In this document: positions 19,741 to 25,180 of the stretch, piece by piece
Layout: every line of letters begins with the position of its first letter
Numbering within the stretch: the first letter of the stretch is position 1
DNA from: Gammaproteobacteria bacterium
GTDB lineage: Bacteria; Pseudomonadota; Gammaproteobacteria; Eutrophobiales; Eutrophobiaceae
DNA: 64,000 bases
Direction: 5' to 3'
Assembly (NCBI GenBank): GCA_963923955.1
Contig: OZ000552.1
Location: 2,182,061-2,246,060 of the forward strand
Notes under the pieces: generated by a model
Told to the model about the DNA's origin: nothing
What the model saw: the letters and a program-made list of their open reading frames with translations, nothing else
The model's database searches: none
Position numbers and translations under genes: made by a program

Positions 19741-20775
19741 TTAACGGAAATTTTCCAGCGTATCCACAACAAACTGACTCACATCGATGCAATCCGCCAA
19801 CAACCGCCGGCGCGCTGCCTCACACTCATCCGGCTGCAAGGCACACAACCAGCGCAGCGCCGGCTGCAATGCCTCCCAGTTCAGTGCGCGCACATTCTTG
19901 ACCAGGTTATAACGGCGCTCCTGCTCATCGGTATAACCGCGCCCGGTGTTCGCCATGTAAATCGCCGGCACGCCCAATACCGCGCACTCCGATGCCATCG
20001 TTGCGATCTCGCCAATAAAGCCATCGCAAAAGGCCAGGACATGATGCACGTCTTCCGGCGCGCCCCCCGTGCGCGAATAGCAAAATTCCCGATACGCCGT
20101 CGGCAAGGGTCTCTCTGATGAGATCATGACATGGCCGAGGGCGAGCAGCCGGTGCAGCAATTTATCCAGCAAGGGCCGGGCCGGCCCGCCTCGCCAAGGT
20201 CATGGCTGGCCTGCCAGGAGACCAGCCGGATAAAGTAATTTTTCTTTGCTTCACAGGCCATTGTCAATGGCTCTGTTCTTATCCGGCGTAAAATAATTCG
20301 GGTGCAGGTAGGCCAGCTCATGGTAGCCCTTATAGCGTGTTGTTTTCCGGCGCGGCGTCCAGCCCGTGTAACAATCAGGCACCACAACCCGTCCGGCAAA
20401 GGGATAGCTCAGCAGATTCTGCAAGCGCGCGTCTTACGTATCATAAAAAACAAGCGCCGGTATCTTCTTAAGCAGGCCGACGTGTGCAATGAAGATGCCG
20501 CCGATGCCCGCCATGACATCGGGGGCAAATCGCCCGGCCGCACGAAACAATCTGGCATCGCGTAAGACCAGCTCTTTGGCCAGAGACAACAGCCCCCCAT
20601 CGCCTTGGGCGGAGATCGTTTCATGCGCAATGCCCAGCCGCTCCAGCAGCCGCGGCGCCATCTCCTTGACCCGACTGGTAAGCATCAGCTCATGGCCGCG
20701 TTGTGTAAGCATTCTTGTGGGTTGGGAGAAAAAATGCACATGGGCCGGGTGGCCGATGTCAATGAGGATTCTCAT
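19741..20775 (-). pseudogene. DUF354 family protein (GT-B/epimerase-like), disrupted by at least 3 frameshifts
   Basis: MRILIDIGHPAHVHFF N-terminus. The frame then breaks after ALVFYDT, resumes as ...YKGYHELAYLHPNYFTPD, breaks again and resumes as LDKLLHRLLALGHVMISS.... Confidence 0.6.
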
Positions 20776-20811
20776 TCTTCAGGCATTCTTCTTAGGCATT
20801 ATTCCCAAGTA

Positions 20812-21678
20812 TCATTCATTCGTCTTTTGATAGAGCAGCATCGTGATCTGCTCGGATACCAGGCCGATCAAAAAGATCAGGATGCTGGAGAGAAACAGGA
20901 TGGCGCTCATGTTGGTAAAGCGCCCCCACAGCAGGAAGGTGTAGGCATAATAAGACACCCCGACGAGGAAGGTCAGGCCGCTGAAGGGGACGAATATTTT
21001 CAACGGCGAGAACAGTGTGCCGATCTTGAATAAGATAAGCAAAAAACGAATGCCGTCTTTGAGCGGCCTGATGTGGCTTTTCCCCAGCCGCTTATGCGCC
21101 GTGATGGGACAAAAGCCGACGGTATAGCCGGAGCGATAAAAGGCCATGGTGCTGGTCGTGGGGCAGGAAAAGCCGTTGGGATAGAGATGCAGAAATTGCA
21201 TGAATTTCTCGCGCGCCGCTATCCTGAAACCCGAGGTCAGGTCCGGCACGGGCCGATTGACCATGTAACTGGCCAACTTGTTATAGGCCGTGTTGGCGAG
21301 CAGGCGCCCGCACCCAGCATGGGAGCCCTTATCGCGCGCGCCGATGACCAGATCAAAGCCCTTTTCGTACTCATTGAGCAGCGCATTGATATACTCCACC
21401 GCGTGCTGGCCATCGGCATCCATGAAGAGGATCACCTCCCGACTTGCATGACGACAGCCGGCCTTGATCGCCGCACCATTGCCCTTGCTGTACAGGTGCC
21501 GGATGCAATCTACATTGTACTGTCGGCACAGTTCTGCGCTGTCGTCACGGGAGCCGTCATCCACCACGATGATCTCCGCCGCAGAAAATTTCTCGCTCAG
21601 CGCCGGCAAGAGAATTTTTAAGCCCCGGGCCTCGTCTCTTGCCGGGATTACAATGCTTAATCTTTTGTGCTCTATCAT
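20812..21678 (-). CDS. GT2 polyprenyl-phosphate glycosyltransferase (ArnC/GtrB/DPM1-like)
   Basis: LSIVIPARDEARGL...IIVVDDGSRDDS...LFMDADGQH motifs plus two C-terminal TM helices. Overlaps the upstream GT-C gene by 4 nt. Confidence 0.8.
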   Translation of the reverse strand: MIEHKRLSIVIPARDEARGLKILLPALSEKFSAAEIIVVDDGSRDDSAELCRQYNVDCIRHLYSKGNGAAIKAGCRHASREVILFMDADGQHAVEYINALLNEYEKGFDLVIGARDKGSHAGCGRLLANTAYNKLASYMVNRPVPDLTSGFRIAAREKFMQFLHLYPNGFSCPTTSTMAFYRSGYTVGFCPITAHKRLGKSHIRPLKDGIRFLLILFKIGTLFSPLKIFVPFSGLTFLVGVSYYAYTFLLWGRFTNMSAILFLSSILIFLIGLVSEQITMLLYQKTNE

Positions 21679-23597
21679 TCCCGCTCCGCAGCCTTTATCC
21701 GCGCCAGATTACTCTCCATCCTCGCCAGCACCTTCCCATTGGCAAGCGCCACCTTTGGGTTCTTCGCAAAATATTCTTTTGTCCGCGCAAGAACCTGCGC
21801 GGCGAGCGCTGTATTCCCCGCGTGTGTTGCAATGTTATATTTCAGTGTGTATTTCTGTACAGATTCCTGCAAGGCCAGCGCGCGCGCAACATTGGCCAGC
21901 GCACAGGCCGTATCTTCCATATACATGCACAGCAGGGCGGCCAATTCGTGCAGCATGTGCTCAAACTGCCGATACTCGGCCTTGCCCGTCAGGGTCAAGG
22001 TGATGCCAATCACGCCGGAGGGATCGACATAGGGACAATGCCCCTCCTGCATCGCCGATACCAGGTCGTTCAAAAAACTGATCGTAACAAAGGGATACCA
22101 GTCCTTCTTTTCACTCTGTCGTGATATAAGCGCCCACCTCTCTTCCGGGATGGCCTCCTGCAAGATACAGCCCTGCACGTACAGGTATTTGATGTATGGC
22201 AAGAGCGTGTTGTCATCAATGCCCTCCAGATGGGCTTGAGCCTTGATCACCGCATCCCGGTAGCCAAGCCGGGCATAGGTATGAATGGCCTTATTCCAGG
22301 CAGCATAGGATTTCGGCTGCTGCATGGCCAGCTCAATGGACTGGCGGTCAAAGTCATCCCAGGTTCTCAATTCAAGATAACTGACCAGAAAAAGCGCGCC
22401 GACATACAGCAGCAGCGGCAGCCTAATCAGCATCTTATCGTATCTCGCCAAGAGGGTGCTGACTACCCACGCGATGAAAAACAGCGGCCCCAGCGCGGGC
22501 AGATAATTTCGATGCTCGTAATATAGCCTGAGATCAAGAAAGCTGGACTCCAGAACATGGCCGCCGAAGAACCACAACACGGCAAAGCTGAGAAAGCCAA
22601 AGCGCTGTCTTTTTAAGATGGCAAAGACAATTAAGCCCACCACGGCCATACAGGCAAACACGGTGCTGAGCGGTTGCAACAAGCCCCTTGCCACTGGAAC
22701 GTCATCGTGATAGCGGGAAAAATCGCCGGGGCTTGGCAGGAATATATTTTGTAGATAATCAAGCAATATCAGGCCCTGGGTCAGCAGGCGCTCAATGGGC
22801 GTGAAATGCCGCTTGGCATAGCCCAGCATCAGCCCGTCAATGGTCAAGATGATCCAGCCGCAGAGCAACAACAGCGGCCCGGCCAGAAAGACTAAAGCCC
22901 AGGTTTTCCAGCGCCGGTCCCGGCACGTATCTTTCAGCAAGGTAGACTCAATCACTAAAATAAACAGCGGCAGCAAGATGCCGTTTTCCTTGCTCAACAC
23001 AGCCAATCCCATAAAGACAAGGACGGAGAAGCTCATGCCGAGGAGGCCGGGCCTTGGCTTGCCTTGAACATAAAGGCCGCGGAAATATAAATAGCAGAGT
23101 ATGCCGAGCAGGGAAAAAAGGGTGGATAATTGTGTCATGCGCTGCACGACATAAAGCACGGTGGTGAACTGGATCGGGTGCAGCACCCACAAGGCCGAAC
23201 ACAGCAGGGCTGTTAGATAACTCCTGCGCCTGTCATAGCCGGTGAGCCGCAGCAGCGTGTTGACCAGGATCAAGACCAGTAGGCCGTTGATGAGATGAGT
23301 GAGCAGGTTGACCAGCTTAAAGGCATAGGCATCGTGCGGCCAGCTTTCATGCTGCAAGGCGAGGCTGAACAAGGAAATCGGCCGGCCTAGCGGGCCGGCG
23401 ATGCCTTCCAGCACAAAAGGCCAGACGCCGGTGTCTGCTACCCGTGCCAGCCGGTAGAGATTATAGTAATCATCGCCCCAGAAACCGGAGTGCAGCGGCA
23501 ATGCAAACAGCAGCAAGACAAGGACGCAAAGACCCAGGAAGATGCCGCCGGTGATAAGATAGGAAGAGCTAAAAGGTAATAGAGGCCGTACTGTCAC
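21675..23597 (-). CDS. GT-C fold membrane glycosyltransferase (PMT/ArnT/TMTC-like) with a C-terminal TPR-like helical domain
   Basis: 640 aa. About 11 TM helices with a GDDYY acidic motif in the first loop, then a soluble helical-repeat C-terminal domain. Confidence 0.7.
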   Translation of the reverse strand: MTVRPLLPFSSSYLITGGIFLGLCVLVLLLFALPLHSGFWGDDYYNLYRLARVADTGVWPFVLEGIAGPLGRPISLFSLALQHESWPHDAYAFKLVNLLTHLINGLLVLILVNTLLRLTGYDRRRSYLTALLCSALWVLHPIQFTTVLYVVQRMTQLSTLFSLLGILCYLYFRGLYVQGKPRPGLLGMSFSVLVFMGLAVLSKENGILLPLFILVIESTLLKDTCRDRRWKTWALVFLAGPLLLLCGWIILTIDGLMLGYAKRHFTPIERLLTQGLILLDYLQNIFLPSPGDFSRYHDDVPVARGLLQPLSTVFACMAVVGLIVFAILKRQRFGFLSFAVLWFFGGHVLESSFLDLRLYYEHRNYLPALGPLFFIAWVVSTLLARYDKMLIRLPLLLYVGALFLVSYLELRTWDDFDRQSIELAMQQPKSYAAWNKAIHTYARLGYRDAVIKAQAHLEGIDDNTLLPYIKYLYVQGCILQEAIPEERWALISRQSEKKDWYPFVTISFLNDLVSAMQEGHCPYVDPSGVIGITLTLTGKAEYRQFEHMLHELAALLCMYMEDTACALANVARALALQESVQKYTLKYNIATHAGNTALAAQVLARTKEYFAKNPKVALANGKVLARMESNLARIKAAERE

Positions 23598-24604: not shown

Positions 24605-24712
24605 AGTTCATTCTCTCCTCGTCAAACGTGCACTTGCCGGTGCCGAAAACATTACCGGAATGCCCATTGTTCTGGCCCACTTTCCCTGGCGCCATTGTAA
24701 TAATCATCCCAT

Positions 24713-24744
24713 AAAAAAAGGCCACCCGCAGGTGGCCCTTTTTA
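24713..24744. terminator. bidirectional rho-independent terminator immediately downstream of the pilin gene
   Basis: aaaaaaa-ggccacc-cgca-ggtggcc-cttttt. Perfect 7-bp GC stem flanked by an A-run and a T-run. Confidence 0.8.
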
Positions 24745-24763
24745 CGCCTTCAAATGCCAAGAT

Positions 24764-25180
24764 TTACTTACAGGCGCTCGGCAGATATTTCCCGTCAAGC
24801 TCGCTAGAGCATTCCCATGTGGAGCCATACTCCGCACCCTCTAATGTAATCGTCTTCCCTTTGATGGCGGCGCTCACGCCCGTATCCTTAAACGTGGCGG
24901 TGATGGTCGGGTTAGTGGCCGTACCACCGACTTCAATACTCCCTACATACTTGCCGCTTTTGGTAAAGCTCAACTCATCCGTGGCAGGTATAGTGCCCTT
25001 ATCACCAATCCACTCGGCCAGCGGCGTCTTGACACCAGAGGTCAGCGTCATGGCTTCTGAGACCTGCGCCCGGGCGATGTAGTCCTGATAGGACGGGATG
25101 GCAACCGCCGCCAAGATGCCGATAATCGCCACCACGATCATCAGCTCGATCAATGTAAAGCCTTGTTGTCTCTTGTTCAT
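24764..25180 (-). CDS. pilA: type IV major pilin (type IVa, PilA/PilE class)
   Basis: MNKRQQGFTLIELMIVVAIIGILAAVAIPSYQDYIARAQVSEA prepilin leader and N-terminal helix. C-terminal disulfide loop C...C and Thr/Ser-rich surface region. Confidence 0.9.
   Translation of the reverse strand: MNKRQQGFTLIELMIVVAIIGILAAVAIPSYQDYIARAQVSEAMTLTSGVKTPLAEWIGDKGTIPATDELSFTKSGKYVGSIEVGGTATNPTITATFKDTGVSAAIKGKTITLEGAEYGSTWECSSELDGKYLPSACK

Follow-up and report, generated by a model that had tools for sequence, protein, structure and literature searches.

The stretch of DNA analysed here, 64,000 nt in length and referred to as the window, contains pilA, the gene of a major type IV pilin, preceded by the regulatory genes pilS and pilR and followed by three small genes, two glycosyltransferase genes and a pseudogene (Table 1). 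The preliminary description of the sequence had placed the pilin gene, the trio of DUF1640-like genes, the GT-C/TPR and GT2 genes and DUF354 in this arrangement, and all of them were recovered there on the minus strand. Orthologs of pilS (E values down to 1e-204) hold the same position in related loci, the one in locus L001 showing the Pfam domains 6TM_PilS, HisKA and HATPase_c, and many of these loci have a pilR ortholog (E values of about 1e-150 to 1e-220) ahead of pilA. A sigma-54-like element is found about 75 nt upstream of the pilA start codon (ATG); its position fits control by PilR, the match alone being without statistical significance. The terminator-like hairpin is located directly 3' of the pilA stop codon. 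At the other end of the gene group, suhB follows directly downstream of the DUF354 pseudogene.

Table 1. Genes and sequence features around pilA in the window
Feature	Position	Strand	Basis
pilS, sensor kinase, regulator of pilA (context)	27999..29606	-	ORF
pilR, sigma-54 response regulator (context)	26647..28104	-	ORF
sigma-54-like -24/-12 element TGGCATagattATGC	25257..25271	-	pattern match, 2 mismatches
pilA, major type IV pilin	24764..25180	-	Pfam Pilin 9.4e-24, N_methyl 1.2e-11
Hairpin GGCCACC-tgcg-GGTGGCC followed by T7, intrinsic-terminator-like	24713..24738	-	sequence
Three tandem CCDC90/DUF1640-like small genes	24338-24604, 23986-24273, 23684-23941	-	PF07798
GT-C-fold membrane glycosyltransferase with C-terminal TPR domain, 640 aa	21675..23597	-	structure, profile
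GT2, polyprenyl-phosphate glycosyltransferase-like, 288 aa	20812..21678	-	PF00535 4.6e-25
DUF354 (GT-B fold) pseudogene	19741..20775	-	three-frame translation, tblastn

The three small genes match PF07798 with E values of 2e-6, 6e-8, and 4e-4, all under the gathering score. Each product consists of a coiled coil and a C-terminal TM helix, and the three are 56-64% identical to each other. They are present only in the window and in L001, being absent from the contig of P0003 and from 80 distant loci, and are a lineage-specific insertion outside the conserved module. Because these unrelated genes and the terminator intervene here, co-transcription of pilA with the GT-C gene is not assured. Terminators after the major pilin gene are known to restrict the expression of accessory genes (PMC11841053).

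The 640-aa protein is presumed to be the pilin O-glycosyltransferase. Its GT-C fold was established by structure and the TPR repeats of its C-terminus by profile, in agreement with what had been proposed from the sequence. The best structural match is the protein O-mannosyltransferase Pmt4, and ArnT is also among the structural matches, sequence identity to these proteins being 7-12%. Regarding remote homology to the PMT and TMTC families, the structure thus matches PMT, while no Pfam match to PMT, MIR or DUF1736 was obtained even at an E value of 10. About 11 TM helices are predicted, and D42-D43 is invariant in the putative first periplasmic loop after TM1. Further invariant loop residues are R72, K94, K203-E204, D298, and H362-R363-N364-Y365, and a pair of cysteines, C477 and C521, is conserved in the C-terminal domain.

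The reported overlap of 4 nt between the GT-C and GT2 genes is real, ATGA being contained in gaATGAtag, and through this overlap the GT2 gene is translationally coupled to the GT-C gene. Its product has a GT-A domain with a DAD motif and two C-terminal TM helices, resembling the polyprenyl-phosphate sugar synthases DPMS, ArnC, GtrB, and AglJ. Among NCBIfam models, AglJ is the best match (1e-27, full length), followed by PgfS (8e-19), Dol-P-hexose transferase, PpgS, and ArnC, but the protein scores under every equivalog cut-off (97 vs. 325 bits for AglJ). In the PDB, DPMS (9e-13), ArnC, and GtrB align over the full length.

For comparison, 80 related loci, nearly all from different species, were collected, of which 72 were usable for the pilin and 70 for GT2. 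The pilin gene is located immediately upstream of the GT-C gene on the same strand in 43 of the 72 loci, typically about 80 nt apart, and these loci span different orders and classes. If pilin or pilS/pilR genes at a distance of up to 10 kb from the GT-C gene are counted, the number rises to 58, leaving 14 loci with none of these genes in that range. A GT2 ortholog, 49-60% identical, follows the GT-C gene immediately in 50 of the 70 loci and does not adjoin it in the remaining 20. Close relatives retain the order pilS-pilR-pilA-GT-C-GT2. The pilA-GT-C-GT2 cassette is also present in the cultured species Pseudomonas nitroreducens and Acinetobacter johnsonii; in P. nitroreducens, divergent pilBCD genes are followed by pilA, GT-C, and GT2, which is the classical position of pilin accessory genes. 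The arrangement of pilin, GT-C, and GT2 genes is far beyond chance, and dozens of species that are only distantly related share its order. Of the two enzymes, GT2 is the better conserved, with a median identity of 55% compared to 34% for GT-C, and this holds for 53 of 53 loci. The difference fits a fixed donor combined with a fast-evolving enzyme that binds the acceptor.

The DUF354 remnant can be read in one frame along its full length and is 52% identical over 345 aa to the intact 354-aa homologue P0125 (tblastn). In the model of the family, the fold is of the GT-B type and similar to MurG, UDP-GlcNAc 2-epimerase, and GT1 enzymes. Of at least three frameshifts reported initially, three lesions were confirmed, but only two are frameshifts. 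One is a TAA nonsense codon within 20425-20433, replacing the Glu of a DTE motif (Glu114, nearly invariant); the others are compensating frameshifts, from about 20160 to about 20250, which bracket approximately 25 codons. As the lesions comprise a TAA substitution and indels that do not lie in long repeat tracts, nothing suggests phase variation or a gene in the off phase. Nor is DUF354 a conserved member of the module, since none of the 80 distant loci has it. The loss of this gene hence has no bearing on the core, which remains intact.

PilA, the presumed acceptor of the GT-C enzyme, is a T4a pilin of the PilE/group IV-like kind. An alignment with 44 GT-C-adjacent pilins revealed the alpha-beta loop ...GTIPATDELSFTKSGKYV and a C-terminal disulfide loop. 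The Ser/Thr-rich stretch to which attention had been drawn is present as quoted, but its Ser plus Thr fraction of 0.26 is unexceptional compared to 0.21-0.23 in related pilins. Neither Ser/Thr content nor a sequon sets GT-C-adjacent pilins apart from other pilins encoded nearby. Modification would most likely take place in the part of the alpha-beta loop that immediately precedes the GKYV motif and contains S64, T66, and S68.

From these analyses it appears probable that the locus is a cassette devoted to O-glycosylation of the type IV pilin, TfpW-like in architecture, in which the linked GT2 would provide a polyprenyl-phosphate sugar donor other than D-arabinofuranose. The initial proposal of a lipid-phosphate-sugar synthase acting with a periplasmic GT-C transferase, with a donor unlike that of TfpW, is thus supported by the GT-C fold, the similarities of GT2 and the conserved gene order. 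The membrane-anchored GT2, facing the cytoplasm, would move one sugar, most likely a hexose or HexNAc, from a nucleotide sugar to polyprenyl (undecaprenyl) phosphate. A flippase, of which the locus encodes none, would then turn the lipid-linked sugar to the periplasmic face. There, the GT-C/TPR enzyme, whose catalytic DD loop and TPR domain would both be periplasmic, would attach the sugar to Ser/Thr residues of pilin that has not yet been assembled into pili. Expression of pilA would be driven by a PilS/PilR-dependent promoter, and the terminator would pass only some transcripts into the accessory genes. In relatives, additional cytoplasmic glycosyltransferases and exporters are encoded after the cassette, and the lipid-linked sugar made by GT2 may be lengthened there prior to its transfer. 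Because the window contains no intact extra transferase, the most likely outcome here is one sugar per site. The missing flippase gene, the loci devoid of pilin and pilS/pilR genes (14 of 72) or of an adjacent GT2 (20 of 70), the unremarkable pilin sequences and the interruption between pilA and GT-C in the window count against this reading. By analogy to TfpW and TfpO, shielding of the pilus from pilus-specific phages would be a likely selective benefit. The gene trio is common to many proteobacterial species and, if this reading is true, would sugar-coat the pilus by a route not yet studied.

Three other explanations have to be weighed. The GT-C protein could be an O-oligosaccharyltransferase, with GT2 only priming the carrier in the manner of Haloferax AglJ acting on dolichol phosphate, other cytoplasmic glycosyltransferases extending the glycan, an exporter flipping it and transfer to the pilin occurring en bloc. 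This is unlikely, but the full-length match of GT2 to AglJ and the gene content of other cassettes speak for it. In 25 related loci GT2 is followed by a GT4 gene, which is the very next gene in 17; the order in A. johnsonii is pilA-GT-C-GT2-ABC exporter-GlfT2-like-GT2-Glf-GT4; in P. nitroreducens, another GT2 is accompanied by a methyltransferase, Wzx, and GT4; and the contig of P0003 carries DUF354, AsnB, radical SAM, Wzx, and GT2 genes. TfpW itself has been proposed to act both as transferase and as oligosaccharyltransferase. In the window, however, neither an intact glycosyltransferase nor an exporter follows GT2, the sole candidate, DUF354, being dead and suhB coming next. Moreover, the top structural match, Pmt4, is a monosaccharide transferase, and the adjoining sugar genes of other genomes may belong to unrelated surface polysaccharide loci.

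Slightly less probable still is a target other than pilin, such as lipid A/LPS core, another envelope glycan or many periplasmic proteins, the linkage to pilA reflecting shared regulation or a recombination hot spot. Lipid A and O-antigen are modified according to the same two-enzyme logic by ArnC/ArnT and GtrB/GtrC, and the structural and sequence matches include ArnT and ArnC. In addition, 14 loci lack a type IV pilus gene nearby, and in the window pilA is set apart from the GT-C gene by three unrelated genes behind a strong terminator. Yet a pilin gene immediately upstream in 43 loci would be difficult to account for if the two were functionally unconnected, and the TPR domain at the C-terminus points to a protein partner. 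In Pseudomonas the GT-C gene fills the exact slot of tfpO, tfpW, and tfpY, and TfpW, the only characterised protein of such architecture and position, glycosylates pilin. Very improbable is an orthodox TfpW using polyprenyl-phosphate D-arabinofuranose made elsewhere in the genome, with the adjacent GT2 serving another pathway. While length class, TM number, DD motif, TPR domain, and position all correspond to TfpW, and the D-Araf genes of P. aeruginosa are likewise unlinked to pilA, the translational coupling of GT2 and its co-conservation with GT-C speak against it. In loci devoid of GT2, no DprE1, DprE2 or phosphoribosyltransferase was detected among the ten scanned genes immediately downstream of GT-C; of the genome studied here, the analysis covered the 64 kb of the window.

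Among known systems, TfpW, the pilin D-arabinofuranosyltransferase of P. aeruginosa/paraeruginosa group IV strains (Pa5196, PA7), is closest, a likeness drawn from its published description and not from sequence comparison. Like the GT-C protein of the window, TfpW (646 aa, 11 TM, encoded directly downstream of pilA) has a TPR domain at its periplasmic C-terminus and, in the first loop on the periplasmic side, a DD(X) motif, which is essential in TfpW. The TfpW motif YX6PFX7P has no more than an approximate counterpart here (Y360-X6-P367-A-X3-P371). The pilins are PilE-like in both cases, and TfpW modifies T64 and T66 in the alpha-beta loop, S64 and T66 of the window pilin following its own, unaligned numbering. 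The TfpW donor is made by a DprE1/DprE2/phosphoribosyltransferase pathway (PsPA7_6245-6251) without a GT2, whereas a GtrB/DPMS-type GT2 is coupled in the window; unlike the TfpW system, the cassette contains no TfpX. TfpO/PilO, PglL, PglS, and TfpM belong to the Wzy_C/O-antigen-ligase family and use Und-PP-linked glycans. They also modify pilins, are often encoded right after pilA, and have likewise been proposed to serve phage evasion, but their fold and donor class are unlike those predicted for the window system. None of them is related to TfpW, and the O-antigen units or oligosaccharides that they transfer have been assembled beforehand on undecaprenol (PMC11841053 and the TfpW literature).

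In ArnC/ArnT and GtrA/GtrB/GtrC, synthesis of an Und-P monosaccharide by a GT2 is likewise followed by periplasmic transfer through a GT-C enzyme, but the acceptors are lipid A or O-antigen instead of protein, the TPR domain is lacking, and the dedicated flippases ArnE/F and GtrA have no counterpart in the locus. AglJ-AglB of Haloferax is archaeal and N-linked, and the window GT2 is far under the AglJ cut-off. GtrB/PgtC2 and PgfS/PgfM1 of streptococci are proven GT2 plus GT-C pairs for protein O-glycosylation, in which an Und-P-Glc or Und-P-GalNAc synthase supplies the sugar and Ser/Thr residues are glycosylated outside the cytoplasm, as proposed here. Their hosts are Gram-positive, their GT-C enzymes are of the YfhO type without TPR, their targets are many Ser/Thr-rich disordered regions and not a pilin, and their genes are unlinked to a substrate gene. 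Eukaryotic O-mannosylation pairs the GT2 DPM1 with the GT-C enzymes PMT1/2/4 or TMTC1-4, the TMTC proteins having 11 TM helices and TPR. In comparison, the system of the window is bacterial and would act in the periplasm on a single dedicated substrate encoded next door.

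The pilin, GT-C/TPR and GT2 genes singled out in the preliminary description were found in the proposed arrangement, all of them on the minus strand. The GT-C gene ends with gaATGA, and since the ATG within this sequence opens the GT2 gene, their 4-nt overlap is real and the two genes are translationally coupled. Judged by its domain matches, the pilA product is an ordinary T4a prepilin. A sigma-54-like element, TGGCATagattATGC, is located ~75 nt 5' of the pilA start, and the stop codon is directly followed by a hairpin (GGCCACC-tgcg-GGTGGCC) and seven T's. pilA and the GT-C gene have the same orientation and are separated by 1.2 kb, into which three small genes are inserted. 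Beyond the remains of the DUF354 gene, suhB, trmJ-like and purM genes are present.

Features of the pilin locus and of further regions discussed in the text, in window positions
Feature	Position	Strand	Remarks
pilB/pilC/pilD-like ORFs	43817-47710	+	574, 405 and 289 aa
pilS	27999-29606	-	first in gene order
pilR	26647-28104	-	second in gene order
Four small tandem genes between pilR and pilA	25445-26494	-	products of 55-76 aa
pilA	24764-25180	-	Pfam Pilin 9.4e-24, N_methyl 1.2e-11
Three CCDC90/DUF1640-like small genes (23684-24604)	24338-24604, 23986-24273, 23684-23941	-	products of 85-95 aa
21-nt tandem repeat in the middle CCDC90-like gene	24064-24116	-	2.5 copies
GT-C gene	21675-23597	-	640-aa polytopic product
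GT2 gene	20812-21678	-	288-aa product
DUF354 gene remains	19741-20775	-	
GT2-like ORF and adjoining ORF	9740-11587	+	318 and 292 aa

Two groups of small genes surround pilA. The proteins specified between pilR and pilA combine an N-terminal coiled coil (…IQAEIAKLMAE…) with a C-terminal TM helix and are 37-85% identical to each other; no credible family match was obtained for them, the single weak NCBIfam hit (E 0.0015) being far under its cut-off. L001, the locus of the closest relative, also has two small genes at this position. The CCDC90-like products likewise consist of a coiled coil and a C-terminal TM helix, with a mutual identity of 56-64%, and a conserved leader of ~35 nt, tgcacgtttgaYgaggaRaRaatgaactATG, stands in front of each of their genes. 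The tandem repeat in the middle gene codes for the heptad KAEIHEV/KAEIQEV, a length-variable coiled coil. Genes of this type were detected in the window and in L001 only, the latter harboring two copies. Elsewhere in the window, ORFs resembling pilB, pilC and pilD by size, order and N-terminal sequence lie ~19 kb from pilA; in Pseudomonas (cf. L083) these genes adjoin pilA divergently. An ORF that is GT2-like by its N-terminal sequence (…VIIPVYNR…VDDGSDE) is situated, together with a neighbor, ~10 kb from the module.

Searches with the GT-C protein gave no match in Pfam or NCBIfam at E values up to 10, and against solved structures the single sequence yielded only noise and no solved GT-C enzyme, while a family profile detected TPR proteins only. 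AlphaFold2, given 34 diverse homologues, produced a confident model (pLDDT 89.3, pTM 0.86) which adopts the polytopic GT-C superfamily fold known from PMT, STT3, ALG and ArnT enzymes; the first external loop carries an acidic motif. The structural matches of the model were led by yeast Pmt4 (18.2), ALG12 (17.5), STT3B (16.5) and AglB (16.2), followed by Pmt2 (15.9), ALG3 (14.9) and ArnT (13.6), and by AftD, AftB, PglB and AftA at about 12.5-13.4. A remote relationship to PMT or TMTC families, for which the preliminary description suggested a search, is thus apparent at the level of the fold but not of the sequence: PMT (PF02366), PMT_2, DUF1736 (PF08409) and MIR signatures are absent from the protein in Pfam at E up to 10, and neither the single sequence nor the profile matched solved PMTs.

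The acidic motif consists of D42-D43 (GDDYYNL) immediately after TM1 and is invariant in the 34 homologues. Further invariant loop residues in the family alignment are R72, K94, K203-E204, D298 and H362-R363-N364-Y365, and a pair of cysteines is conserved within the C-terminal domain. Eleven TM helices, TM7 and TM8 being separated by a long loop, fit the hydropathy, the helices of the model and the positive-inside pattern, from which the topology of the protein can be inferred.

For the GT2 protein, a GT-A domain (PF00535, 4.6e-25, residues 8-159) with a DAD motif at residues 87-89 is followed by two C-terminal hydrophobic segments (~212-232 and 253-284), as in polyprenyl-phosphate sugar synthases. 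The closest solved relatives are DPMS, ArnC and GtrB, the alignment with GtrB sll0501 spanning residues 6-279. The top NCBIfam matches were AglJ (1e-27, over the full length), PgfS, Dol-P-hexose transferase, PpgS and ArnC, and every one of them stayed far below its equivalog cut-off (97 of 325 bits for AglJ, 68 of 500 for PgfS, 48 of 529 for ArnC and 58 of 370 for PpgS). The predicted class, a synthase of the polyprenyl-phosphate sugar type, is clear, the sugar not being fixed by these cut-offs.

The decisive evidence for the proposal of a pilin O-glycosylation module, which is supported in its core, came from the recurrent order pilA-GT-C-GT2 in other genomes. More than 3,400 homologues of the GT-C protein were scored, and at least 589 stretches encoding a relative were present among the first 600 candidates with one genome per species. 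The best 80 loci, with 30-44% identity to the GT-C protein of the window, were compared. They derive mostly from uncultured Gammaproteobacteria (relatives of Thioploca, Thiomargarita and Beggiatoa, Woeseiaceae, Pseudohongiella, Arenicellales, Thiogranum), and also from Betaproteobacteria, Magnetococcales, Microbulbifer and Alcanivorax. Among the 72 loci with enough upstream sequence, a pilin gene on the same strand directly precedes the GT-C gene in 43 (median gap ~80 nt), and a pilin or pilS/pilR ortholog is contained in 58. For a random gene, a pilin neighbor would be expected in well below 1% of cases, a value that is an estimate and not a computed control. A clear GT2 ortholog (E about 1e-100) directly follows the GT-C gene in 50 of 70 loci with a median gap of 6 nt, and in every one of 53 loci GT2 is better conserved than the GT-C protein (median identity 55% versus 34%). 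The complete order pilS-pilR-pilA-GT-C-GT2 is kept in both of the nearest relatives (70% and 62% identity), and in the more distant of the two pilA directly adjoins the GT-C gene.

Variations on this arrangement were also observed. A GT4 gene comes after GT2 in about half of the loci, and some contain exporters and further transferases. Cultured carriers are found as well, namely Pseudomonas nitroreducens (GCA_029836465.1) and Acinetobacter johnsonii (WP_224468136.1 or WP_279670825.1), whose proteins are matched by the window protein with E values of 4e-67 and 6e-67. The former has the genes in the classical accessory slot, pilD-pilC-pilB being divergent and followed by pilA, GT-C and GT2. In A. 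johnsonii (L082, 7471-17337), pilA, GT-C and GT2 precede genes for an ABC exporter, a GlfT2-like galactofuranosyltransferase, a GT2, UDP-galactopyranose mutase and a GT4, a set from which a galactofuranose-containing pilin glycan appears possible. In L002, L003, L016, L020, L037, L050, L078 and L080, pilA is followed by two or three GT-C/TPR paralogues in tandem, usually with one GT2 gene behind them, a hint that one donor serves several linkages or several acceptor sites. Two pilin genes, directly upstream of GT-C-GT2 and divergent from them, are present in L031, L046, L047, L059 and L064 (Pseudohongiella, SAR86 and an unclassified gammaproteobacterial MAG); the linkage to pilin survives the change of orientation in these loci.

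Neither DUF354 nor CCDC90-like genes occur in any of the 80 loci, and they lie outside the conserved unit. The CCDC90-like trio, missing from all relatives but the closest, was accordingly rejected as a part of the module. The DUF354 gene had been described as broken by at least three frameshifts, with the module perhaps partly decayed or phase-off. In a tblastn search, an intact homologue of 354 aa (P0125; PF04007, 1.4e-16) aligned to the remnant over 345 residues, within one frame and at 52% identity, and the N-terminal fragment of the remnant still matches PF04007 (4.8e-4). An intact PF04007 frame of ~350 aa is not present, being interrupted by three lesions of which only two are frameshifts. 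The remaining one is a TAA nonsense codon in place of the Glu in a DTE motif, this Glu being at least 90% conserved among 42 homologues. The frameshifts compensate each other around ~25 codons, the true sequence ...KKNYFIRLVSWQASHDLGEAG... being found in another frame. Phase variation was rejected, since the lesions are not associated with repeat tracts and one is a base substitution; no sign of a phase-off state was seen. Decay holds for this one non-conserved accessory gene, but the core of the module is intact. The intact DUF354 family was modelled with a pLDDT of 94.6; the model adopts a GT-B fold and is nearest to GT1 transferases, UDP-GlcNAc 2-epimerases and MurG. At the corresponding position L001 encodes, on the plus strand (12918-14462), a 514-aa protein that has no Pfam or NCBIfam match.

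From these analyses the cassette probably glycosylates pilin with a lipid-phosphate sugar made by GT2. In such a scheme, GT2 would attach one sugar to undecaprenyl phosphate at the cytoplasmic face, an unlinked flippase would move the product to the periplasm, and the GT-C enzyme would use its DD loop to pass the sugar to Ser/Thr of pilin, which is probably held by the TPR domain. Because nothing intact follows GT2 in the window, a single sugar per site is most likely there. In genomes with GT4 genes or exporters, the product of GT2 may serve as a primer and undergo extension prior to transfer, by analogy to AglJ in Haloferax. Pilins beside GT-C enzymes are PilE-like and have an alpha-beta loop with Ser/Thr residues ahead of a conserved GKYV motif; S64, T66 and S68 of the window pilin are candidate sites. 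In the group IV pilin of Pseudomonas aeruginosa arabinosylation occurs mainly at T64 and T66, a parallel in residue numbering that is only suggestive. Neither in Ser/Thr content nor in S/T three residues before GKYV were the pilins adjacent to GT-C genes distinct from other nearby pilins.

Pilin glycosylation affects phage resistance, immune recognition and pilus function. To our knowledge, the enzymes understood in Gram-negative bacteria are of two types only, oligosaccharyltransferases of the TfpO/PglL type and TfpW with its arabinosylating activity. The cassette is best grouped with pilin-accessory GT-C glycosyltransferases, as a widespread set of genes with a candidate function. Whether it represents a large uncharacterised class of dedicated proteobacterial pilin O-glycosylation systems is evenly balanced; with thousands of members in the databases, such systems would resemble DPM1 plus PMT/TMTC, a fast-evolving GT-C enzyme transferring a conserved polyprenyl-phosphate sugar made by GT2 onto pilin, directly or after extension by variable neighbors such as the galactofuranose set of A. 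johnsonii. If true, this would constitute a third route besides TfpO/PglL and TfpW, and a compact bacterial model of PMT/TMTC-style O-glycosylation in which substrate, transferase and donor synthase are specified by three genes. The idea is directly testable, because cultured P. nitroreducens and several Acinetobacter species carry the cassette, which may also serve glyco-engineering. Full-text literature searches revealed no paper on a GT-C/TPR enzyme that is both linked to pilin and coupled to a GT2.

The closest known system is TfpW (AAM52060.1), a protein of 646 aa that has a TPR domain at its C-terminus, a predicted set of 11 TM helices and, in loop 1, a DDX motif that is essential. Its gene is located downstream of pilA, and homologues have been noted in several genera, those published including WP_090729738.1, WP_130134296.1, WP_028883051.1, WP_139198627.1 and STR11763.1. 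The likeness was judged from the published description and concerns architecture, motif and position. The GT-C protein shares the ~11 TM helices and the large C-terminal TPR domain, its N-terminus being predicted to be cytoplasmic and the TPR domain periplasmic; the DDX motif of periplasmic loop 1 is matched by the invariant D42-D43, and the gene lies downstream of pilA in the same orientation, that of P. nitroreducens being in the accessory slot. The TfpW motif YX6PFX7P corresponds only partly to Y360-EHRNYL-P367-A-LG-P371, where YX6P fits but F and the X7P spacing do not, and Y...HRNYLP is the sole conserved part of this proline-rich region in the family consensus. Neither the name TfpW nor its published accessions occurred among the 360 GT-C homologues listed, including those from searches seeded with Pseudomonas and Acinetobacter proteins; in these searches and a cluster look-up the only name given was 'tetratricopeptide repeat protein'.

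The donors appear to differ. TfpW relies on the arabinose pathway of DprE1/DprE2 and lacks a partner GT2, whereas the cassette contains a coupled GT2. DprE1, DprE2 or a polyprenyl phosphoribosyltransferase were not recognised among the genes adjoining the module in the window, nor were D-Araf pathway genes among ten genes scanned directly downstream of GT-C genes in loci devoid of GT2, which specify dehydrogenases, CobD, methyltransferases and a GT4. The cassette points to a far wider distribution of TfpW-like enzymes than has been assumed, most of which would use a GtrB/DPMS-type lipid-phosphate sugar and not the mycobacterial-like arabinose pathway. In this respect it would work like eukaryotic DPM1 with PMT or TMTC (GT39, GT105), although their Pfam signatures are lacking. 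The same logic underlies the proven streptococcal pairs GtrB/PgtC2 and PgfS/PgfM1, which differ from the cassette in employing another GT-C family and in acting on many substrates.
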